DNA of 39,684 bases from a virus (Duplodnaviria; Heunggongvirae; Uroviricota; Caudoviricetes), in the IMG/VR virus record IMGVR_UViG_2740892027_000001. One strand, written 5' to 3'. The notes beneath the pieces are model-generated. The model saw only the letters and a program-made list of their open reading frames with translations, did not search any database and was not told the origin of the DNA. Shown here piece by piece: positions 1,998-34,619 of the stretch; position 1 is the stretch's first letter, and every line of letters starts with the position of its first letter. The position numbers were made by a program, and so were the translations under genes.

Positions 1998-4460
1998 TCA
2001 ATTCCCTGTTAATTGCAAAACTTGCTCTTCCAGCTTTTTAACCCTGCGTCTCATCATCGCAGATTCCAGAATCAGAGCCTCTTCATAACGGATACCGTAA
2101 CATTCACCAGCCTCGACGGCTTCGCGTACCAGAACCTTTGTCTGTATAAGTGGGTAAACTCCTGCAGAATGCTCTTCTTCCGTCACATCCCTGTATTCTG
2201 CCGGGGTCTCATTCCACTTGTCATAACAGATAAATGCCAGTCGTGACACATCTATGCCTTCATTCTGAAATACACTGATAACATGCTGCGCAACTGCACC
2301 AAAGTGCCATCTTGCTCCGTCTTTACCTTTCACTTCGATCCTGTCAAGGTACTGGTATGAAACCCATTCCACTCTTTCCCATGCGTCCAGTATTTTCTCA
2401 TCAATAACCTCTGGAGCAGTCTTGAAACGCGCATCGGACAGCACCGTAAACGCTGACTGGGTAAATCCCCCCGACCATGCACGACCAGCCAACCCAAGAG
2501 AATAAGTATTCGTTGTCGATGGTGTCATGGCTGAATCAGAAAACTGTATATATTCTGAATTTCCAGTAGATATTCGAATATTTCCATTTATTAGCGACAT
2601 AGTGCCTTTAGTATTATCACTATTGAATAATTTCAATTGCGAACTTATACCGCCTCCCACAGCCAGAGATACATCGCCTTCAGCAAGCATTCTGAATTTA
2701 TCTGCAGAAACAAGCGTCTGGTTAGCAAGGTTAAAATATTTAACCCACCATTCAAAACGCCCTGACATAGTCCCAACGTACTGACCAAGCGCAGGGACGT
2801 GAACAACATTGCTATTTGTAGTGCCGTCTATACTGGAAATACCAGTCACCGCTGATGCAGAACTCAGAATATTATTTCTGTCACCCGGATGTTTAATTTC
2901 AACAAAGTTCCTGATACACCCTTCCTCGAAGGTAACCACGCCGGAAGAACTATACATGGGGAATATTGACGCATAATTACTGCGTGCAGCATCTAAGAAA
3001 CGAATGGTTGTAGATGTCTGCAGATCTCCTGATTCATTTTTCCCATCACACCCAGTCATTAGAATATTACTGGCAATATTATTATTTCCCTGAACGGTGA
3101 CGCCGTGCGCCTGCTTTGCGTCCGATTCAGAGTAATCAACCAGCACATCCGAAATCAGGTTACCAGTCCCCTTGCCAACAACTACTGCGGCGTATTTTGG
3201 GTTGTTAGCCATTACACTGCTAATGATATTATTCGTTGGGGCAGTTTCCGTCTCAGTTCCATTGTAAACAACGTGCTGACACTCTTCACCAATAACATTG
3301 CTGACAATGTTATATTTTGCTGCTGTTTTAAGTTCCACTGCACCAAACTGAGGATAATTTCTGGCTATCACACCATCAATTAGCGTATTTTGCGATGAAT
3401 CAAAAAGCACACAACCTGCTTTTTTATTATTTGCGAACCCTAAATACTCTCCTCTTATATCTCTAACAATGTAACCTGACGGAATACCATTATTCGGATA
3501 AGCGATCAAGCTAAATCCTGTTCCTCGCGTATTTGTAAATCTGATATTTTTAACCGATACATCATGGCCACCTGAAAATGACACCTGGTGTCCCTGCACA
3601 CTATCATCTGATTTATTTCCCATAATTGTTAGCGTACTAAGCATGCCACCATCGGGCATGTTAAAAACCAGATGATTACCATCTCTGTCATACTGTTTTA
3701 TCGTTCCCCCACCTGTTCCGTACAAGCCACAACGTGAAAGAGAAACTAAAGATGTATTGAATACCCCTTCCGGAACAAAAACACTGCTAAACGAATGTAA
3801 TGATTTTGTAAAAGCATCCTTGTTATCATTTAAGATTCCATTTTGAGCTCCAAAATCCTTAATGCTGACACCATCACGCATCTTATCCTGGAACGTTCTG
3901 TATACCGCTCCAGAACCATACTGAATAAACCAACCAAAACCACCAATAACTCCGGCGATTGCAGCATCGACATAATTACGCATTGAGCGATTATTTACAG
4001 CGTCCTGCTCAAGTGATGGATCGGCAAGGTTAGATATTCTGTTTTGCTTTGCATCGTAATATTTTGCAAGCAAAGATGGTTTCATCAATGCACGTCTGAA
4101 CCACCCAAAACATCGCTGGATCAGCATCGTCAGGTAGTCAAATGCATCCTCATGAACTTCGGGGAAAAATTTTCCCTGATTGCGAAGATCAGTCTCCTGC
4201 ACCACATCAAGCACACGCTCTATCGTGATTCGCCAGCCAGCAGCAAGCGGCGACGGAAGAACCACTGCACCGCCACTATAAGTTCCCGCCCCTGTTACCG
4301 TATAACCAGCATCCAGCACTAGTTTTGTAACGTTACCGTTAAGGTCAGACACCTGAACAACCAGGTCGGATTTTTTGAAAATACGGAAGGTATACGGAAA
4401 TGATGTCGTAACGCCGTTACCTGTGTATTCGTTGTGGTCAACTTCGGTTGAGACCGTCAT
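1998..4460 (-). CDS. Tailspike / tail fiber with beta-helix region and C-terminal intramolecular chaperone (peptidase S74-like) domain
   Basis: 820 aa; central Gly/Asn/Thr-rich repeats typical of right-handed beta-helix depolymerases; C-terminus has the LSDARFK autocleavage-type motif and chaperone-like tail; last structural gene before lysis genes. Confidence 0.8.
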   Translation of the reverse strand: MTVSTEVDHNEYTGNGVTTSFPYTFRIFKKSDLVVQVSDLNGNVTKLVLDAGYTVTGAGTYSGGAVVLPSPLAAGWRITIERVLDVVQETDLRNQGKFFPEVHEDAFDYLTMLIQRCFGWFRRALMKPSLLAKYYDAKQNRISNLADPSLEQDAVNNRSMRNYVDAAIAGVIGGFGWFIQYGSGAVYRTFQDKMRDGVSIKDFGAQNGILNDNKDAFTKSLHSFSSVFVPEGVFNTSLVSLSRCGLYGTGGGTIKQYDRDGNHLVFNMPDGGMLSTLTIMGNKSDDSVQGHQVSFSGGHDVSVKNIRFTNTRGTGFSLIAYPNNGIPSGYIVRDIRGEYLGFANNKKAGCVLFDSSQNTLIDGVIARNYPQFGAVELKTAAKYNIVSNVIGEECQHVVYNGTETETAPTNNIISSVMANNPKYAAVVVGKGTGNLISDVLVDYSESDAKQAHGVTVQGNNNIASNILMTGCDGKNESGDLQTSTTIRFLDAARSNYASIFPMYSSSGVVTFEEGCIRNFVEIKHPGDRNNILSSASAVTGISSIDGTTNSNVVHVPALGQYVGTMSGRFEWWVKYFNLANQTLVSADKFRMLAEGDVSLAVGGGISSQLKLFNSDNTKGTMSLINGNIRISTGNSEYIQFSDSAMTPSTTNTYSLGLAGRAWSGGFTQSAFTVLSDARFKTAPEVIDEKILDAWERVEWVSYQYLDRIEVKGKDGARWHFGAVAQHVISVFQNEGIDVSRLAFICYDKWNETPAEYRDVTEEEHSAGVYPLIQTKVLVREAVEAGECYGIRYEEALILESAMMRRRVKKLEEQVLQLTGN

Positions 4461-4564
4461 GTTAAATCTCCAGATAGTCGCAGCACCCGTTGCGCCGCAT
4501 ATCTGGTTATTCTATTACCCAAAAAACCATATATGGATAGAAAGACTGTGAATATGAATAGATA

Positions 4565-4579
4565 TTACCTTTCAGGTAA
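4565..4579. promoter_or_regulatory. Operator-like palindrome TTACC-tttca-GGTAA (full ATTACC-N5-GGTAAT)
   Basis: Perfect inverted repeat; member of a motif family found at least 14 times in the window, almost always intergenic. Confidence 0.55.
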
Positions 4580-4616
4580 TTTTCAAAACGTGCTGGATAG
4601 CAAACAAATTATTTGC

Positions 4617-4636
4617 TACTGTATAAATATACAGTT
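4617..4636 (+). promoter_or_regulatory. LexA (SOS) box TACTGTATAAATATACAGTT
   Basis: CTGT-N8-ACAG with AT-rich spacer, 15/16 match to CTGTATATATATACAG; ends 6 nt before ATG 4642; an AGCAAA-N7-TTTGCT inverted repeat (4599-4617) abuts it. Confidence 0.65.
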
Positions 4637-4641
4637 ATTGC

Positions 4642-4914
4642 ATGGAGAAGATTAAGATGCAGCAGTATCACTATCCACTGGAAGAGGGATTTACCGAAAG
4701 GATTCACACGCCGGGAGGCGTCAGGTCACTGGTGGAGGGATCGCACTTGATGAAATTACTCCGGGATCTCGATAAGGATGGATTTAATGTCGATGGCCCA
4801 CTTGCCGAACTGACTGCACTGATTAACTACGTCACCAGCTCACAGATGTCTATGCGGGATCTGCAAACACATCTCGACTATTGTGCCGAACAATTACGAA
4901 AACAAACCAGATAA
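4642..4914 (+). CDS. Small antirepressor-like protein (paralog of the C-terminal domain of the Bro-N antirepressor at 5230-5925)
   Basis: 90 aa; LMKLLRDLDKDGFNVDGPLAELTALINYV...LQTHLDYCAEQL aligns with LMNLLNQLQEDGHDVSGAAAELTTMFCYI...IQTHAEYINDK of the downstream antirepressor; LexA box at promoter. Alternative start ATG 4657 with GGAG Shine-Dalgarno. Confidence 0.55.
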   Translation: MEKIKMQQYHYPLEEGFTERIHTPGGVRSLVEGSHLMKLLRDLDKDGFNVDGPLAELTALINYVTSSQMSMRDLQTHLDYCAEQLRKQTR

Positions 4915-4945
4915 GGTTTGTAATTACCAAGTGGAGTGCTTATAT

Positions 4946-4960
4946 TTACCTTTGCGGTAA
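4946..4960. promoter_or_regulatory. Operator-like palindrome TTACC-tttgc-GGTAA (full ATTTACC-N5-GGTAAAT)
   Basis: Perfect inverted repeat between the two antirepressor-type genes. Confidence 0.5.
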
Positions 4961-5051
4961 ATTTACATCGCACTCCTCTTGTGCCATAGTAATCGGGCAC
5001 TGGCAAAATCCAGTGCCGGGATTGGCGTCCCGGATTACTAAAAGGCGCATT

Positions 5052-5071
5052 CACCGCGCAAGCGGTTTTTT
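5052..5071 (+). terminator. Putative intrinsic terminator (ACCGC-gcaa-GCGGT + T7)
   Basis: Short GC stem followed by TTTTTTT; preceded by two further hairpins at 4996-5033. Confidence 0.4.
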
Positions 5072-5229
5072 TATGCGTATAGCACGGCCACATTCGTATT
5101 ATGGTGGGCTGTGTGGGGGCACCGAAAGGTGCGCCGGGTCCTTTTAGCCGGTTACGCCAACCCTGCACAGTTCACCACCAACCGATTGGCGTCGGTAGTG
5201 GTGATTAACCAGACTAAAAGGTAACCACT

Positions 5230-5925
5230 ATGACAGCTACAAAAAGCACGTCCATTTTTTCTTTCGAATCTCAAGCCGATATACGGGTAATCGTCATTAA
5301 TGGTGAGCCATGGTTTATCGCTTCAGATGTTTGTCGGGCTATAGGCATAGCAAACCATCGAGATGCTGTTCGAAAACTTGATGATGATGAGAAGGGCGTC
5401 GCTTCAACCGACACCCCTGGCGGTGAGCAAGAATCGATCATTATCTCCGAGTCAGGCCTCTACACACTGATCCTCCGCTGCCGCGATGCGGTGACACCAG
5501 GCACTATCCCCTACCGCTTTCGCAAATGGGTTACAGGTGAGGTTCTTCCTCAGATCCGCCGCACCGGAAGTTACATTAAAAACTCGCTCCCGCAGGAAGA
5601 ACGCATAAAGATGGTTGCCGACCAGGTAGCCAACGCCACGGCGTCAGCAGTAATGCAGGCGATGAAGATAGAGAACAAAACCTACAGCGCCCCGCTGAAG
5701 CCCGGCTACCGCAGCCTGATTCACTCGCCGTCTGGTGTTCTCGGCCTGACGGAAAACTCACTGCTGATGAATCTGCTGAACCAGTTACAGGAAGACGGGC
5801 ACGACGTATCGGGCGCGGCGGCGGAGCTGACCACCATGTTTTGCTACATCGTTGGTGTGAGCAAGTGCCTGCGTGATATCCAGACGCACGCGGAGTACAT
5901 CAACGACAAGGCTGGGTTCTTCTGA
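5230..5925 (+). CDS. Antirepressor with N-terminal Bro-N domain
   Basis: 231 aa; N-terminus SIFSFESQADIRVIVINGEPWFIASDVCRAIGI matches the Bro-N signature; C-terminal domain shared with ORF 4642-4914. Confidence 0.75.
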   Translation: MTATKSTSIFSFESQADIRVIVINGEPWFIASDVCRAIGIANHRDAVRKLDDDEKGVASTDTPGGEQESIIISESGLYTLILRCRDAVTPGTIPYRFRKWVTGEVLPQIRRTGSYIKNSLPQEERIKMVADQVANATASAVMQAMKIENKTYSAPLKPGYRSLIHSPSGVLGLTENSLLMNLLNQLQEDGHDVSGAAAELTTMFCYIVGVSKCLRDIQTHAEYINDKAGFF

Positions 5926-5991
5926 CGGGCGGCGGCACAGGGACGTGCCTTTAAAATAATCATTGGCGATGTGATGTAGATTCGCGTAATA

Positions 5992-6006
5992 TTACCTTAC
6001 GGGTAA
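5992..6006. promoter_or_regulatory. Operator-like palindrome TTACC-ttacg-GGTAA
   Basis: Perfect inverted repeat 39 bp upstream of ATG 6045; the 17-mer ATTACCTTACGGGTAA also occurs at 33330-33345. Confidence 0.55.
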
Positions 6007-6044
6007 ACCCCGTTTAATGGCGTTTCTATATTATGAGGTGATGT

Positions 6045-6680
6045 ATGCCACAACAACTGCTGAATCCGGCAAAGGTTACTGAAGTTTTCGCTCATCTGAA
6101 CGAAACTCCAGACAACCGCGCCCTGTATTCAGAGTTAGTGAACGGCAACGATGTCACATCTGATGTCAAAGGCGTTTCTCTGGCTCCTGGATACCGCGTT
6201 GTCCGTGTAGACGATCGTAAGAAAGGCGAGATTCCACAGGCGCACTTCGAACTGGCATTGATAAATGACCTCACCGAAGAGGTAGTGTATTACAATCGTG
6301 TCATTATCCAACCTGACAGCTATCTTAACTGCCGACCTGTCACGCAGATATTGGTATGGAGAACCCAGAAGCCTAAGCATCGTGCTGTGCTTCATGATTT
6401 CGCCGGCATCATCTTCATGAACTACCTCTTGGAACGGTACGATATCATCGTGTCAGATCGCAACCAGACTCATGAAGGCATGTCGTTCTGGCAGGCTCGC
6501 ATGTATGACGCACTGGAACTTGGCCTCCACCTCTATGGTTACGACATGATGACATGCGAGCTGATAGAGATGAATAACGAGGAAGAGCTTGAGAAAGGTG
6601 AAACCTGGTTGTGGGGTGATGCGGAAAACTTCCAAAACAGATTGGCCATAATTTCAAAGCATAAGCTGCCAATAAAATAG
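6045..6680 (+). CDS. Hypothetical protein, stand-alone accessory (moron) gene
   Basis: 211 aa, GAGGTG Shine-Dalgarno; own operator-like site upstream and strong terminator downstream; no family recognised by eye. Confidence 0.6.
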   Translation: MPQQLLNPAKVTEVFAHLNETPDNRALYSELVNGNDVTSDVKGVSLAPGYRVVRVDDRKKGEIPQAHFELALINDLTEEVVYYNRVIIQPDSYLNCRPVTQILVWRTQKPKHRAVLHDFAGIIFMNYLLERYDIIVSDRNQTHEGMSFWQARMYDALELGLHLYGYDMMTCELIEMNNEEELEKGETWLWGDAENFQNRLAIISKHKLPIK

Positions 6681-7274: not shown

Positions 7275-9749
7275 TTATTGCGGAGTGACATCCTGAGGTC
7301 GCCACCAGTATGTCTGGTTAAACTCTTTCTTCGAACGTTGCTCCATTTTACGCAAATAGCCTGGTGAAAAATACTCCTGCATCTGGTTAAAGATCATGTG
7401 ATCAAGAGCTGCCTTCAAGTACCAGAGATTCGCACCTGGCATCAGCCCTTTCCCAAGTTTCACCAGATCACCACCAGTCTGCTCGTTCTTCCCTTCCACA
7501 GCATTTAATGGTATGCCCTGAGCTATCTTCACTACGTCATCAATCAGGCCAGCTACCGGGCCAAGCATCGACGCCAGCGCGCCGCTTCCGTACCTAGTGT
7601 GATCTGACAATAAAAAGTCACCGTAAAGGCCAAGACCACCACCTTTCAGTAGAGCACCAAGCCAAAATTTAGCAGCATCTTCTCCTGTCATCTCGCGAGG
7701 ATTACGACCAGACGCAAGGTCGTTAAGTTGCTGCGACAAAGCGCCAAGAATGGTCGTACTGGCAATAAACGTCGCAATATATGCCGCACGCCCACCAGCA
7801 GACGGCATACCCATAGCGCGTGACCAGTGACGCATAACCACCGAGATAGGGAACGATTTAAACAGGAAAACACTTCTCGTTAATTCACCTTTCCATGTTC
7901 CACGCTGAATACCAGAACCGGTTATCAGTTGCTCACGTGCTCCCGGTGTAATAACAGCCATATCAACTTCTTCAGTTACGGCACCGAGCAGTTTACGCAT
8001 TGCCTCAAATTTCACGCGTTCAGGCTCACCAAGATGTTTAACTGCTGAATCAGGGATACGCATAATGCTTTCCGGTGTCAGCATCGTATTATTACCGTTC
8101 CCCCAGTCCTCCTGTTGCGCCAGCTTCCATACGCTCCAGTCTGTGTCAGTAATCCCTTTGCTTTTCAGGATACGAAAATCAGAGTCATCGAGGCTACGAA
8201 GGTCTGGTGTCCGTGACACTACTTCTCCCAGGCTTCCCATCATGGTTACGCCATAGGCGCGCTTGTGCGCATCTGACCATGCTGTAAGCCCACTGGCACG
8301 CATTACCGCCGTTGCTGCCCAACGAGACACTGACGGCCCCATATTATCCATCGCCCAGCGGTTAACGCTGCCAAGTAGAGATTCCATTGCCAGACCAGCG
8401 CGGCGCGCCCGCGCAAGTTCTGTACGGTTCGTTGGGTCCATAGCTTCAAGCTGGTTGCGGAATAACTGGTTCATTGGAAGGTTGGTCACCTTCGCAGACA
8501 GATACATGGTTCCAAGATCAGAGAACGATGATAGCAACGCGGATCCGAGTCTGCTGGCAACCAGCCAGTTGCGGATATTGTCAGACCATCGCGCGATGTG
8601 CGGATTCGCTACAGGCTGTGTCTTTCCGGAAATAAAGTTGTACAGATTCTCTGTGTTGTTCGCCAGCCGCTCGACTTTACCGGTTTTACTCGGGTTAGCT
8701 GTTGCCGTTTCTGCCTTAACCTGATCAAGAAGGGAGCGGAAAACATGATCGGGGTTTGGACCATATGTTTCCACCAGAGCAATATCTTTACTGATACCTT
8801 CCAGGTGACCGACCATGATTTCCCATAGAGAGCGATCGCCATAAAGTTGTTGATATTGGAGATAGGAATCAGCATCTTTGAAATGTATCTGTCGTGATGC
8901 ATTACCACGGTTAGCACGTGCGCCGGAAATTCGCATTCCGGTATCAGTAAGCTTATTCAGCCCACCAGTAGCGATCGTGTTATAAGCCTCTCCAAGAAAT
9001 GCAGACAACTCGGCACCGTTCATCAGTTGTCCATCGGCTCGGGTATAATATTTGCGATCCAGCTTACCTATAACATCGTTAACCCACTTATCCTTTGATA
9101 CCGCCCCAACCTTTTCCATAGAATGATGTTGAGGGATCCCCCAGTTTTCGAGATAGCCAATGTCCCCACCAGCATCATTAAACCGGCGGCGCAGCAGCTC
9201 TGTAACTTCTCTCCACGCCTTAGCACCTTTTCTTGCTTTAGCATTGCCAGTATTTTGCCCCCGCATTTCATATACCAGGTCACGTACGCCCGCTTCATCT
9301 TCAAACAGACCAAAAAAGCGAGGATCAACTGCTTCGAATGCCTCCTGCAATTGACTCAATGCATAATCACGGGTGGCTTTTGTTCTGGATTCAACAGAGA
9401 GGAAATTAGATTTACCGTCTGCATTAAAAGCTATAGTACGGTTAAGAGCGCCAAGTTTCCCATCAGCCCCTTGATAGCTATTGATAAATTTATCCAATCT
9501 CTGACGCGCGGCTATAGTGAGAGCCACACGACGTTTCTTTAATGCCGCTTCTCGCTGTAATTCTTCAGATGCCAATTGTGCTGCTCGATATAGCCGCTCT
9601 GATTCGGAAAGTTGTCGCCACGACATCGGGTCATCACGAGCAATGGAGCGCATATTTCGATAAATGCGGTCTTCAATGTTCTGTATTTCTCGCGCCGTTA
9701 ACATGCGCTGCGCCGCCTGCTGAACCGCCTGTATACATTCCTGTCTCAT
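7275..9749 (-). CDS. Internal virion (ejection/core) protein, large
   Basis: 824 aa; position in a T7-like gp14-gp16 block after the tail tube genes; no enzymatic motif confirmed. Confidence 0.55.
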   Translation of the reverse strand: MRQECIQAVQQAAQRMLTAREIQNIEDRIYRNMRSIARDDPMSWRQLSESERLYRAAQLASEELQREAALKKRRVALTIAARQRLDKFINSYQGADGKLGALNRTIAFNADGKSNFLSVESRTKATRDYALSQLQEAFEAVDPRFFGLFEDEAGVRDLVYEMRGQNTGNAKARKGAKAWREVTELLRRRFNDAGGDIGYLENWGIPQHHSMEKVGAVSKDKWVNDVIGKLDRKYYTRADGQLMNGAELSAFLGEAYNTIATGGLNKLTDTGMRISGARANRGNASRQIHFKDADSYLQYQQLYGDRSLWEIMVGHLEGISKDIALVETYGPNPDHVFRSLLDQVKAETATANPSKTGKVERLANNTENLYNFISGKTQPVANPHIARWSDNIRNWLVASRLGSALLSSFSDLGTMYLSAKVTNLPMNQLFRNQLEAMDPTNRTELARARRAGLAMESLLGSVNRWAMDNMGPSVSRWAATAVMRASGLTAWSDAHKRAYGVTMMGSLGEVVSRTPDLRSLDDSDFRILKSKGITDTDWSVWKLAQQEDWGNGNNTMLTPESIMRIPDSAVKHLGEPERVKFEAMRKLLGAVTEEVDMAVITPGAREQLITGSGIQRGTWKGELTRSVFLFKSFPISVVMRHWSRAMGMPSAGGRAAYIATFIASTTILGALSQQLNDLASGRNPREMTGEDAAKFWLGALLKGGGLGLYGDFLLSDHTRYGSGALASMLGPVAGLIDDVVKIAQGIPLNAVEGKNEQTGGDLVKLGKGLMPGANLWYLKAALDHMIFNQMQEYFSPGYLRKMEQRSKKEFNQTYWWRPQDVTPQ

Positions 9750-19316: not shown

Positions 19317-19367
19317 CTTCTTTCTCCATTAGTGGGTCTGTTACGACCCACAGGTTAATAACAGGCG

Positions 19368-23350: not shown

Positions 23351-23365
23351 TTACCTTTAAGGTAA
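23351..23365. promoter_or_regulatory. Operator-like palindrome TTACC-tttaa-GGTAA
   Basis: Perfect inverted repeat in 400-bp non-coding region between portal gene and tRNA; TTGACA at 23330-23335 nearby. Confidence 0.5.
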
Positions 23366-23687: not shown

Positions 23688-23764
23688 GTGGCATTAGCTC
23701 AGTCGGACAGAGCAACCGCCTTCTAAGCGGTTGGTCGCAGGTTCGAATCCTGCATGCCACGCCA
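23688..23764 (+). tRNA. tRNA-Arg (anticodon UCU), phage-encoded
   Basis: 77 nt cloverleaf folded by hand: 7-bp acceptor stem GTGGCAT/ATGCCAC, D-arm GCTC/GAGC, anticodon stem ACCGC/GCGGT with loop CUUCUAA, T-arm GCAGG-TTCGAAT-CCTGC, 3' GCCA. Confidence 0.85.
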
Positions 23765-30207: not shown

Positions 30208-30222
30208 TTACCCCTGAGGTAA
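30208..30222. promoter_or_regulatory. Operator-like palindrome TTACC-cctga-GGTAA
   Basis: Perfect inverted repeat 4 nt upstream of the start codon of ORF 29860-30204. Confidence 0.5.
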
Positions 30223-32303: not shown

Positions 32304-32534
32304 TCATGAGTAGAAGAAGTATGCCAGTTCTGCTTTTGAGCGCAGCCATTGTCTTGTTTTACAGGCTTTAAAAAGCCCATTCATCAATACTTTACCTGGC
32401 ATTTTGCGCTTACCTGTTAAGTGAGTCTGGATATAGTGACTCGTCGTTCCGGCTTCCTGTGCGAAGGCTTCACGCTCATCCGGAGTAAGTGCAAGCCAGT
32501 GCTTTTTGAAATCGAAATGTCCGTTATCGCTCAT
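32304..32534 (-). CDS. Cro-like HTH regulator
   Basis: 76 aa; helix-turn-helix-like EAFAQEAGTTSHYIQTHLTGKRK; first gene of the rightward early operon, divergent from the repressor gene across the operator cluster. Confidence 0.55.
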   Translation of the reverse strand: MSDNGHFDFKKHWLALTPDEREAFAQEAGTTSHYIQTHLTGKRKMPGKVLMNGLFKACKTRQWLRSKAELAYFFYS

Positions 32535-32570: not shown

Positions 32571-32633
32571 TCACCCATAAGGTAACAAAAATCAAGGATA
32601 GTTACCTATGGGGTGCATTTACCTGTTGGGTAA
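32571..32633. promoter_or_regulatory. Immunity-region operator cluster: three sites between divergent cro-like and repressor genes
   Basis: TCACC-cataa-GGTAA (32571-85), TTACC-tatgg-GGTGC (32602-16) and perfect TTACC-tgttg-GGTAA (32619-33); a -35/-10-like TTGATT-N17-GAATAT for the cro-like gene overlaps the first site. Confidence 0.6.
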
Positions 32634-32688: not shown

Positions 32689-33273
32689 ATGAAAAGTATC
32701 CAGGACGTCCGCAGGCAAAATCTCAACGACTTGATCGACCGTGAATTCAATGGTGTTCAGACGCGGATGGCAGAAAAACTTGGAACTCAGGCAAATCTGG
32801 TAAACCGCTGGGCTCTTGGTAAGAAGGTTATCGGCGATCAGGTTGCGCGAAAAATTGAAGCTGCCGCCAATAAACCCCGTAACTGGCTTGATATCGATCG
32901 CTCGCTTTCTCAGGAAGGTTTTCAGCCTGTCGGCCCAAGCGACATTGGCCAGCTGGCGGCTCACAACCTGGAACGCTGGATGAGCGAAAGCCGCGACCTT
33001 TCAACACAGGGAAAACTTCACCGCGCATCCGGCGTAGCCCAGGTGACAATCAGCCGCCTGTTAAACAATGAGGTCAGCGTTTCCATTTCCACCCTGGAGA
33101 ATGTTGCATCTGCATTCGGGCGTCACGGATATGAACTACTGATTCACCCGCACGACCCTGCAACTATCAACTATGACCGCTCGCGCTACGCATTGTTACC
33201 TGAAACAGAGAAAGCAAAGATCGAAAGTTACATTGAATTTGTCATCAACCAGAACGAAAAAAGCAAACAATAA
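32689..33273 (+). CDS. Prophage repressor candidate (two HTH domains, no S24 peptidase domain)
   Basis: 194 aa; HTH at QTRMAEKLGTQANLVNRWALGKK and a second at KLHRASGVAQVTISRLLNNEV; divergent from the cro-like gene; followed by a strong terminator. Confidence 0.6.
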   Translation: MKSIQDVRRQNLNDLIDREFNGVQTRMAEKLGTQANLVNRWALGKKVIGDQVARKIEAAANKPRNWLDIDRSLSQEGFQPVGPSDIGQLAAHNLERWMSESRDLSTQGKLHRASGVAQVTISRLLNNEVSVSISTLENVASAFGRHGYELLIHPHDPATINYDRSRYALLPETEKAKIESYIEFVINQNEKSKQ

Positions 33274-33330: not shown

Positions 33331-33345
33331 TTACCTTACGGGTAA
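33331..33345. promoter_or_regulatory. Operator-like palindrome TTACC-ttacg-GGTAA
   Basis: Perfect site immediately after the repressor terminator; same 17-mer as at 5991-6006. Confidence 0.55.
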
Positions 33346-33364: not shown

Positions 33365-33407
33365 TTGACACCAAACCAAATAAGCATAATTATTACCTCA
33401 ACGGTAA
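33365..33407 (+). promoter_or_regulatory. Candidate early-left promoter (consensus -35 TTGACA at 33365-33370) overlapped by operator TTACC-tcaac-GGTAA (33393-33407)
   Basis: Perfect TTGACA; AT-rich CATAATTATT in the -10 region with ambiguous spacing; operator overlaps the -10/+1 region; plus-strand operon starts downstream. Confidence 0.4.
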
Positions 33408-33584: not shown

Positions 33585-34619
33585 ATGAGTGAATTATCAA
33601 TCATCGAAATCACACCAGACATGGCACCAAGAATTTACGTTGAAAAAGGGCTGGAAAAGTTTCTCGAGCAGATCCGTGAAGGTGTTAATGAAGTGCCTGA
33701 CATTAGCACAGACAAAGGCAGAAAGCGCATTGCATCTCTGGCTGCGAAGGTTTCAAGAAGTAAAACAGCGGTAGAAAAACCAGGACGTGATTATCTGAAA
33801 CGCCTGAAAGAACAGCCGAAAGTAGTTGAAGCAGAGTTACGACGCTTCGTAACCGAATGCGATCGGCTTCGTGATGAAGTACGCCGCCCACTCACCGAGT
33901 GGGAAAATGCTGAGAAATTACGCACTGAAGCACTGCAACAACGCCTGACAAATTTGCGAGCACTAGCTGACGTGATCGATCTCTCCGGAAACTACTTGCC
34001 ATCATCTGATATTCAGGAACGAATTCAAGAGGCTAAATCAGTAGCACTTGATGAAAGTTGGCAGGAGTACGCAGCAGAAGCTGGAGTAGCCAAGGATTCA
34101 ACCATCCAGAAACTGGAAGAATCACTCGCAGTAGCTCAAAAACGCGAGCATGAAGCCGCTGAGCTGGAGCGACTTCGCAAAGAAGCGGAGGAAAAAGCGC
34201 GCATTGAGCGAGAAGAGAATATGCGACGGGAAGCTGCTGAACAGGCCAGGCTCGAAGCTGAACAAAAAGCGAAAGCTGAAATTGAGGCTGCGGCACGCCT
34301 GGCGGCGGAAGAAAAAGCACGTGCTGAAGTAGCAGAACGTCAGCGAATTGAAGCAGAGCAGCGTGCACGACGCGAAAAAGAAGAAGCCGTTGCCGAGGAA
34401 CGCCGACGCCAAGAGGCGGCAGAAAAAGCCCGCCTTGACGAACAGAAGCGTATCGCCGACGAAGAAGCGCGCCGAGCTGCAGATAAAGAGCATCGCCGTA
34501 CCGTTAACCGCAGAGTAATCGCAGATCTGATAGCCCAAGGCATTCACGAAGAATTCGCGCAGAAAGCAATGTTGGCTATCGCTGGCGGCAAAGTGCAGGA
34601 CGCGTATATCAAATATTGA
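33585..34619 (+). CDS. Coiled-coil protein with Glu/Ala/Lys/Arg-rich repeat region
   Basis: 344 aa; globular N-terminal about 160 aa then long AEEKARxEAEQ-type helical repeats; upstream of recombination genes. Confidence 0.55.
   Translation: MSELSIIEITPDMAPRIYVEKGLEKFLEQIREGVNEVPDISTDKGRKRIASLAAKVSRSKTAVEKPGRDYLKRLKEQPKVVEAELRRFVTECDRLRDEVRRPLTEWENAEKLRTEALQQRLTNLRALADVIDLSGNYLPSSDIQERIQEAKSVALDESWQEYAAEAGVAKDSTIQKLEESLAVAQKREHEAAELERLRKEAEEKARIEREENMRREAAEQARLEAEQKAKAEIEAAARLAAEEKARAEVAERQRIEAEQRARREKEEAVAEERRRQEAAEKARLDEQKRIADEEARRAADKEHRRTVNRRVIADLIAQGIHEEFAQKAMLAIAGGKVQDAYIKY

Follow-up and report, generated by a model that had tools for sequence, protein, structure and literature searches.

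How could a prophage whose repressor has no recognisable self-cleavage domain be induced after DNA damage, and what would a second antirepressor gene, lying next to the first, add to its control? This question is raised by a stretch of 39,684 nucleotides from a virus of the Caudoviricetes (IMG/VR record IMGVR_UViG_2740892027_000001, here called the window in its full length), in which a small gene behind a LexA (SOS) box, ant, is followed by a gene for a protein with a Bro-N domain (4565-5925), and in which a repressor gene, rep, is found farther along. Judged by its sequence, the window is a phiV10/epsilon15-like temperate podophage of the genus Uetakevirus and an E. coli prophage; over positions 4460-6050 it is 95-98% identical in nucleotides to the Escherichia phages phiV10, TL-2011b and vB_EcoP_ZX5 (ZX5), and 78% identical to Enterobacter phage Tyrion. 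The answer that we regard as likely is a two-route model, in which an SOS-controlled small antirepressor (Ant) and an RNA-gated protein made of a Bro-N domain fused to an Ant-like domain would both work against a repressor (Rep) of the type known from Salmonella phage SPC32H. The homologies, the motifs, the RNA family memberships, the complementarity and the covariation were computed here, while control by LexA, the complex of Ant with Rep and the consequences of over-expressing ZX5 ORF4 or the ZX5 repressor come from orthologs studied elsewhere. We infer that Rep binds at the sites described below and is the target of both antirepressors.

The LexA box, the small antirepressor and the repressor

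The element TACTGTATAAATATACAGTT upstream of ant has a perfect CTGT-N8-ACAG core, and 18 of its 20 bases match the 20-nt E. coli LexA consensus (2 mismatches). When the whole window was scanned with this consensus, allowing up to three mismatches, it was the sole match, with 0.00 expected from shuffled sequences. Exact CTGT-N8-ACAG sites occur three times in the window, and the spacer is AT-rich in the site at ant only; the other two, at 19338 and 23880, were rejected as LexA boxes because of their GC-rich spacers. The ant orthologs of phiV10, ZX5, SPC32H and Tyrion also have the box ahead of them, with a spacer that varies, and a weaker box with an ATGT left half precedes the ant ortholog of Klebsiella phage ST11-OXA245phi3.2 (hereafter the Klebsiella phage). 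The region upstream of ant, with the box and an operator-like site described below, aligns base for base with the ant promoter region of SPC32H. The near-consensus LexA box that the initial annotation had placed ahead of the small gene is thus present, unique in the window and conserved in relatives, and we predict that LexA binds to it. Two candidate ant promoters picked by hand, TGGATA-17-TACTGT and TTGCTA-17-TATTGC, were weak, and neither was adopted.

The small gene had been read as an open reading frame (ORF) of 90 aa at 4642-4914. This ORF exists, but translation probably starts at the in-frame ATG 4657 and gives a protein of 85 aa, because GGAG at 4644-4647 then becomes the Shine-Dalgarno sequence and because the annotations of phiV10, ZX5 and SPC32H, as well as the PDB chain, start there. 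Ant matches PDB chain 5D50_E ('Anti-repressor protein') over residues 2-84 (E 6e-47), is 88% identical to SPC32H Ant by tblastn and 86% identical in protein alignment, and belongs to phrog_450 in PHROGs. PDB 5D50 is the Rep-Ant complex of Salmonella phage SPC32H, and the GenBank entry of this phage names genes ant and rep at positions equivalent to those of the window genes. Ant had also been described as a paralog of the C-terminal domain of the neighbouring 231-aa Bro-N protein, and BLASTP bore this out with 32 of 74 residues identical (43%, E 2e-16) over residues 150-223 of the latter.

Rep matches PDB chain 5D50_A ('Repressor') over its full length (residues 1-190, E 3.5e-42) and is 43% identical to SPC32H Rep; its C-terminal half matches the Rep tetramerisation domain in 5D4Z. 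Pfam profiles gave HTH_3 at residues 106-147, a weak helix-turn-helix (HTH)-like match at 21-61 and no Peptidase_S24 at E<=0.1, in agreement with the earlier description of the protein encoded at 32689-33273 as a repressor with two HTH domains and no S24 peptidase. Induction in the classical manner, with RecA-stimulated self-cleavage of Rep and an incidental LexA box, could appeal to the general prevalence of that mechanism and to nothing more; since no S24 domain is detected at this threshold, since the full-length homolog has a solved structure of a different fold and architecture, and since the LexA box, the only one in the window, is conserved, we find this explanation barely credible. The repressor of ZX5 is 99.5% identical to Rep, and its over-expression blocked lytic growth and abolished free phage (PMC9782041).

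Homologs of Ant and of Rep were found in 35 and 36 phage records, respectively. The two sets are essentially the same and their host breakdown is near-identical, which supports the view that Ant and Rep are a functional pair; the co-occurrence is strict, also in phages without the Bro-N copy. In SPC32H, Rep is reportedly not cleaved during the SOS response and is inactivated by Ant, and the ant promoter is said to be repressed by LexA, a point mutation in the box giving the constitutively lytic variant SPC32N. According to the summaries of Kim et al. 2016 (PNAS) given in PMC9638917 and in a 2025 bioRxiv preprint, SPC32H Rep binds DNA as a tetramer, which the tetrameric Ant splits into dimers. 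As far as these alignments go, the core switch of the window is the published SPC32H antirepression switch (Kim & Ryu 2013, J Virol; Kim et al. 2016), here in an E. coli Uetakevirus, and is in this sense already known. The initial annotation had proposed SOS induction by antirepression, with a LexA-repressed small antirepressor and a non-cleaving repressor, and this proposal is strengthened by the orthology of Ant and Rep to the SPC32H pair and its reported mechanism.

A palindrome of the form TTACC-N5-GGTAA is enriched in both phages. With one mismatch at most, it was found 14 times in the whole window against 0.52 expected, and 18 times in SPC32H against 0.67 expected; around rep and upstream of ant, the sites are arranged alike in the two genomes. 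Besides the sites at 4565 and 4946, both of which the initial annotation had listed, a further one lies at 5992; the same palindrome flanks rep (32571, 32619, 33331 and 33393), as it does in SPC32H, and is also present at other intergenic sites of the window. The half-sites of the 4565 palindrome are kept in phiV10 (with one half-site change), ZX5, SPC32H, Tyrion and the Klebsiella phage, and its central 5 nt vary. At the 4946 palindrome, an alignment with phiV10, Tyrion and the Klebsiella phage gave invariant half-sites around a free central 5 nt, and an Stx phage with the same downstream RNAs but a different repressor lacks the site. From their position, enrichment and conservation, we read these palindromes as putative Rep operators, and the suggested feedback of the repressor on the antirepressor genes finds support in them at the sequence level. 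Two pairs per genome are exactly 62 bp apart from start to start, at 30208/30270 and 33331/33393 in the window and at 33604/33666 and 35972/36034 in SPC32H (L007). This spacing, about six helical turns, would fit one Rep tetramer bridging two palindromes on one face of the DNA.

The isrK-like and C4-type RNAs between the two genes

The initial annotation took ant and the Bro-N gene as a module and missed what separates them: the 315-bp gap holds two RNAs that score in Rfam, an isrK-like small RNA and a C4-type antisense RNA, and a promoter scan placed a separate candidate promoter for the Bro-N gene just ahead of them. The transcription start predicted from this promoter is the first base of the isrK match, and the promoter position is kept in relatives. 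Both RNAs also score above the Rfam gathering thresholds in phiV10, TL-2011b, Tyrion, the Klebsiella phage and an Stx2a phage; in the Stx2a phage, RF03163 c4-a1b1 ('a1, b1 targets of C4') overlaps the isrK homolog. In the SPC32H locus, Rfam found neither isrK nor C4.

Two words of C4 predicted to be unpaired are exactly complementary to targets on both sides, CCUUUUAG to isrK at 5038 and to the Bro-N leader at 5214, and ACGCCAA to isrK at 5022 and to the leader at 5186 (Table 1). The leader word at 5214-5221 (b') contains the Shine-Dalgarno sequence of the Bro-N gene, 8 nt before its ATG at 5230. In Tyrion, the (a) words of isrK, C4 and leader read TTGGTCT, AGACCAA and TTGGTCT, and the (b) words, in the same order, CTACAGAGG, CCTTTGTAG and CTACAAAGG; the (b) words are CTAAACGG, CCGTTTAG and CTAAGCGG in the Klebsiella phage and GAAAAAGG, CCTTTTTC and GAAAAAGG in the Stx2a phage. 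These three-way compensatory changes support pairing of C4 with both isrK and the leader. Whole-RNA duplex energies were moderately better than those of mononucleotide shuffles for C4 with the leader (9 of 500 shuffles at or below the observed value) and for C4 with isrK (7 of 500), and not significant for isrK with the leader (181 of 500). The case for the predicted pairing is carried by the exact complementary words and their covariation.

Two small ORFs run over C4, one from ATG 5101 (35 aa) and one from GTG 5111 (37 aa). They could in principle be coupling ORFs of the orf45/icd kind, which we do not claim. The ZX5 record has a 37-aa 'ash family protein' coding sequence at this place (L008 2151-2264, corresponding to window 5111-5224) that lies wholly over C4 and the leader and ends 5 nt before the Bro-N ATG; it is probably an RNA gene mis-called as a protein. 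In TL-2011b, an insert of ~0.9 kb separates ant from isrK (L003 3780-4868), with an annotation on the opposite strand that says 'similar to hypothetical protein' only.

A kinship of the Bro-N protein with the antirepressor encoded behind isrK-C4 in the Stx phage was considered and rejected, the two being unrelated in sequence. For the same reason the isrK-C4 cassette is, by sequence comparison, portable between antirepressor genes.

Table 1. Positions of the genes, RNAs and sites of the window that are discussed in the text (strand "." for sites reported without orientation)
Feature	Position	Strand	Remarks
Operator-like palindrome TTACCTTTCAGGTAA	4565-4579	.	upstream of the ant promoter region
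LexA (SOS) box TACTGTATAAATATACAGTT	4617-4636	.	just upstream of ant
ant, small antirepressor, 85 aa	4657-4914	+	probable start; Shine-Dalgarno GGAG 4644-4647; alternative in-frame ATG 4642 gives 90 aa
Operator-like palindrome TTACCTTTGCGGTAA	4946-4960	.	abuts the -35 of the isrK promoter; centre ~-44 from the isrK 5' end
Candidate promoter of the RNA/Bro-N operon	4962-4990	+	TTTACA, 17 nt, (TG)CATAGT; predicted start ~4997 (promoter scan)
isrK-like small RNA, equivalent to an a1/b1 target element	4997-5072	+	Rfam RF01394, 77.9 bits against gathering threshold 50
isrK words a1 TTGGCGT and b1 CTAAAAGG	5022-5028 and 5038-5045	+
Intrinsic terminator of isrK	5053-5072	+
C4-type antisense RNA	5097-5182	+	Rfam RF01695, 77.7 bits against gathering threshold 45, full-length match
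C4 unpaired words b2 CCUUUUAG and a2 ACGCCAA	5140-5147 and 5154-5160	+	from the fold and the complementary words
Leader targets of C4, a' TTGGCGT and b' CTAAAAGG	5186-5192 and 5214-5221	+
Second antirepressor, 231 aa	5230-5925	+	Bro-N (residues 17-107) fused to an Ant-like C-terminal domain (~150-226)
Operator-like palindrome TTACCTTACGGGTAA	5992-6006	.	upstream of the 211-aa gene; its 15 bases are identical to the 33331 site
211-aa gene	6045-6680	+	directly downstream of the Bro-N gene, behind the operator-like site 5992-6006
824-aa virion protein gene	7275-9749		past the membrane genes
Tailspike/tail-fiber gene	1998-4460	minus	beta-helix region, then C-terminal Peptidase_S74 intramolecular chaperone domain (residues 675-735)
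tRNA-Arg (anticodon TCT) gene	23688-23764	+	SPC32H has one too; operator-like site ~340 bp upstream at 23351
Putative operator pair	32571-32585 (one mismatch) and 32619-32633	.	between rep and the divergent 76-aa regulator gene 32304-32534
rep, prophage repressor of SPC32H Rep type, 194 aa	32689-33273	+	HTH, without S24
Putative operator pair, 62 bp apart	33331-33345 and 33393-33407	.	brackets the TTGACA promoter of the rightward early genes, after the rep terminator

The Bro-N protein and two proposed routes against one repressor

The Bro-N domain attributed to the 231-aa protein by the initial annotation was recovered by profile search (PF02498, residues 17-107, E 2.3e-21, 76.7 bits against a cutoff of 25.6). 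The protein matches phrog_130 'anti-repressor Ant' (E 4e-63), and its C-terminal domain matches 5D50_E (E 1e-13). This Ant-like domain is 77% identical to its counterpart in Tyrion, and 52% to that in the Klebsiella phage, and with small Ants the identity is 37-39% in every case; the Bro-N-linked domains form a group of their own, and the duplication is therefore old. A scan for CTGT-N8-ACAG found no LexA box at the Bro-N gene. The protein is 100% identical to ORF4 of ZX5, whose over-expression reduced lysogens from 1e9 to 1e6 (~1000-fold) and lowered rep mRNA by 75% (PMC9782041); that paper has no mention of the small Ant, of LexA, of SPC32H or of the RNAs.

The small Ant of the Klebsiella phage (L005 1851-2111) carries the segment DGHDVSGAAAE, otherwise typical of Bro-N-linked domains (there at 2864-3115), where the small Ants of E. 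coli and Salmonella phages have DGFNVDGPLAE, which suggests either an ancestral state or an exchange between paralogs. A third Ant-like match lies elsewhere in the genomes of TL-2011b and HEMP4.

Under the two-route model, lysogeny would be held by Rep, a two-domain protein unable to cleave itself that probably sits on TTACC-N5-GGTAA at early promoters. On the first route, LexA would silence ant from its box until DNA damage removes it, so that the 85-aa protein is produced; if the Rep-Ant structure solved for SPC32H is a guide, Ant would then bind Rep and dismantle the DNA-bound tetramer. On the second route, the promoter abutted by a putative Rep operator would transcribe isrK and then, by read-through, C4 and the Bro-N mRNA. 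The unpaired segments of C4 would pair with a' and b' of the leader and block translation of the Bro-N gene, because b' covers its Shine-Dalgarno sequence. The terminated isrK RNA could compete for C4, as it carries the same two targets (a1/b1), or could remodel the leader, and in either case translation would be released, a release of the kind known from P1 immI and from isrK-anrP of Gifsy-1. The Ant-like C-terminal domain of the Bro-N protein would most likely dock on the same Rep. We infer the direction of the C4 and isrK effects.

Several points weigh against this picture. The scan with the sigma-70 consensus returned no promoter at threshold over the LexA box, where box and ant promoter would be expected to overlap. 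The operator-like site at 4565 lies ~40-55 bp upstream of the LexA box and may not occlude the ant promoter, and the position of the site near -44 of the isrK promoter would suit activation as well as repression. Rep is 43% identical to its SPC32H homolog and Ant 86-88%, so the binding of this Ant to this Rep is an extrapolation. Finally, the published effect of Gifsy-1 IsrK is direct activation of the upstream ORF orf45 and not titration of the C4-like RNA (PMC4825925), so that the division of labour proposed here for the two RNAs is tentative.

The unequal divergence of Ant and Rep also permits another assignment of roles, in which this Rep has the Bro-N::Ant-like protein as its cognate inducer, the small Ant serves in broad or cross-immunity antirepression or works poorly on a diverged Rep, and SOS induction through Ant is indirect or nil. 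Ant has changed little between E. coli and Salmonella phages in comparison with Rep, and the divergence of the Bro-N C-terminal domain follows that of Rep more closely (77% for the domain and 78% for Rep in Tyrion, 52% and 45% in the Klebsiella phage); moreover, it was with the Bro-N protein that the sole experiment in this E. coli lineage was done. We nevertheless hold this assignment to be unlikely, since all lineages compared have kept the small ant ORF with its Shine-Dalgarno sequence, as well as the LexA box and the operator, since Ant and Rep co-occur strictly even where the Bro-N copy is absent, and since the Bro-N gene, having no LexA box, would give no SOS input alone.

Conversely, the Bro-N protein might not act on the resident Rep. 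It could be an anti-immunity or trans factor directed at other prophages, or a DNA-binding regulator that works through its Bro-N domain and whose Ant-like domain serves oligomerisation only. Bro-N domains are thought to bind DNA (PMC7313666; PMC9782041), the antirepressor genes behind the isrK-C4 cassette of Stx phages are unrelated, an instance of modular reuse, and the module is accessory, being absent from SPC32H, epsilon15, PAS61 and BUCT554. Yet the small Ants and the Bro-N C-terminal domains, those of Tyrion and the Klebsiella phage included, have 20 invariant positions in common, the Ant-like form is confined to phages that carry this Rep family, and a Rep-operator-like site lies on the Bro-N operon promoter; it was also lysogeny of ZX5 itself that over-expression of ORF4 cut. 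In view of these data, such a role appears very unlikely.

Within the two-route model, the two antirepressors might form a two-stage latch on one repressor, an idea that we put forward tentatively and consider rather doubtful. Once DNA damage has lifted LexA and the small Ant has been made, its removal of Rep would derepress the operator-bearing isrK promoter, and read-through from ant may contribute, because there is no terminator between 4914 and 4997. Excess isrK, with its a1/b1 words, would then outcompete C4, so that the Bro-N::Ant-like protein is made and the state sustains itself after LexA returns. Mixed oligomers of Ant and the Bro-N::Ant-like protein are conceivable, since Ant is a tetramer. 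The RNA gate would also be an SOS-independent induction route, as reported for IsrK in Gifsy-1.

Relation to known systems and distribution

With SPC32H, the window shares the Ant (86-88%) and full-length Rep (43%) orthologs represented by PDB 5D50 and 5D4Z, the genus, the position of the genes between the tailspike gene and virion/membrane genes, the alignable LexA box and operator, and the TTACC-N5-GGTAA sites around rep with their pairs 62 bp apart. The two differ in that Rep is strongly diverged, that the SPC32H host is Salmonella and not E. coli, and that SPC32H has the small ant only, without isrK, C4, the Bro-N::Ant-like gene or the 211-aa cargo gene.

The immI operon of P1/P7, described by Citron and Schuster in 1990, consists of the c4 antisense RNA, icd and ant. 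Common to both systems are a C4-family RNA (RF01695) whose two unpaired segments find complementary copies on either side, a1/b1 upstream and a'/b' downstream over a ribosome-binding site ahead of an antirepressor gene, and an operator of the primary repressor at the operon promoter, predicted in our case. In contrast to P1, whose Ant is unrelated, the b' word here covers the Shine-Dalgarno sequence of the antirepressor gene itself and not that of icd, of which there is no homolog here, and the primary repressor is an SPC32H-type Rep and not P1 C1.

SPC32H-type Ants form a family that is structurally distinct from the antirepressors of the Gifsy phages and Fels-2 and from 186 Tum. The logic of a non-cleavable repressor and a LexA-repressed antirepressor is nevertheless shared with the Gifsy-1, Gifsy-3 and Fels-2 antirepressors and with Tum of coliphage 186 (Lemire et al. 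2011, PMC3121763), in siphophage and myophage backgrounds as against a podophage one here. In Gifsy-1, the isrK promoter drives an antirepressor mRNA that is translationally silent, and a processed RNA downstream of isrK is complementary to isrK (Hershko-Shalev et al. 2016, PMC4825925). The isrK-orf45-anrP-isrJ region of Gifsy-1 resembles the window in having isrK with its own promoter and a leaky terminator, and in the order of isrK, a processed C4-like RNA (STnc1160) region and an antirepressor gene whose translation depends on RNA (PMC4825925), a dependence that is predicted from sequence here. The distance from the isrK start to an AUG is likewise close, ~105 nt here (ATG 5101) and 107 in Gifsy-1. 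The window differs in that the module stands beside a LexA-controlled antirepressor; isrJ had no Rfam match in it. Comparative genomics of the APSE phages of Hamiltonella described the order isrK, C4, Bro-N gene, with C4 complementarity upstream of the Bro-N gene (PMC7313666); this order is shared here, and no adjacent LexA-controlled Ant was reported for these phages (PMC7313666).

The initial annotation had likened the position of the module, in a podophage, to that of P22 immI (mnt, arc, ant, sar RNA). A secondary immunity region beside the tailspike gene is indeed shared, as is, by prediction, a limit set on antirepressor expression by antisense RNA, but a P22-like background was rejected: the backbone is that of an epsilon15/phiV10-like Uetakevirus, and the likeness is therefore positional only. 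No Arc or Mnt match was obtained with Pfam in the four ORFs scanned (ant, the Bro-N gene, the 211-aa gene and rep), no dedicated search for small ribbon-helix-helix ORFs having been made, and no P22-type sar RNA was among the Rfam matches of the window.

The ant/Bro-N locus is flanked by the tailspike/tail-fiber gene and small membrane genes. The receptor-binding part of this tailspike is unlike that of phiV10 and that of SPC32H. The slot after the Bro-N gene is variable: it holds a YafO-family toxin gene with other small genes in TL-2011b, two hypothetical genes in ZX5 and nothing in SPC32H. In the window it is occupied by the 211-aa gene, which may be a Rep-controlled cargo gene; its product had no match in Pfam, NCBIfam or PADLOC and matched only phrog_1349 (unknown function). 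The NCBIfam and PADLOC scans of Ant and of the Bro-N protein were equally uninformative.

Of 5426 complete E. coli genomes, 238 (~4%) carry the whole module. In these genomes, the small antirepressor is annotated as 'hypothetical protein' and the second as 'BRO-N domain-containing protein', and the RNAs are either unannotated or mis-called as an 'ash family protein' coding sequence. No Pfam or NCBIfam model covers Ant, most database members of its family are named 'hypothetical protein', and phrog_450, which holds the experimentally characterised SPC32H Ant, is listed as 'unknown function' in PHROGs v4. Transfer of the SPC32H annotation would mend this.

Since the core switch has been solved already, the window adds no new principle to it. 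What is new here is its E. coli member, together with a hitherto undescribed pairing, in which the Ant under LexA control stands beside a second copy of its domain that is fused to Bro-N and predicted to be gated by C4. The sole experimental paper on the lineage, that on ZX5, dealt with the Bro-N protein, and its results should be read differently in the light of the Ant under LexA control, of the Ant-like domain common to both proteins and of the predicted C4 gate, none of which it notes. One repressor facing an SOS-controlled and an RNA-controlled antirepressor with the same binding domain would be a compact natural system for the study of signal integration in prophages.

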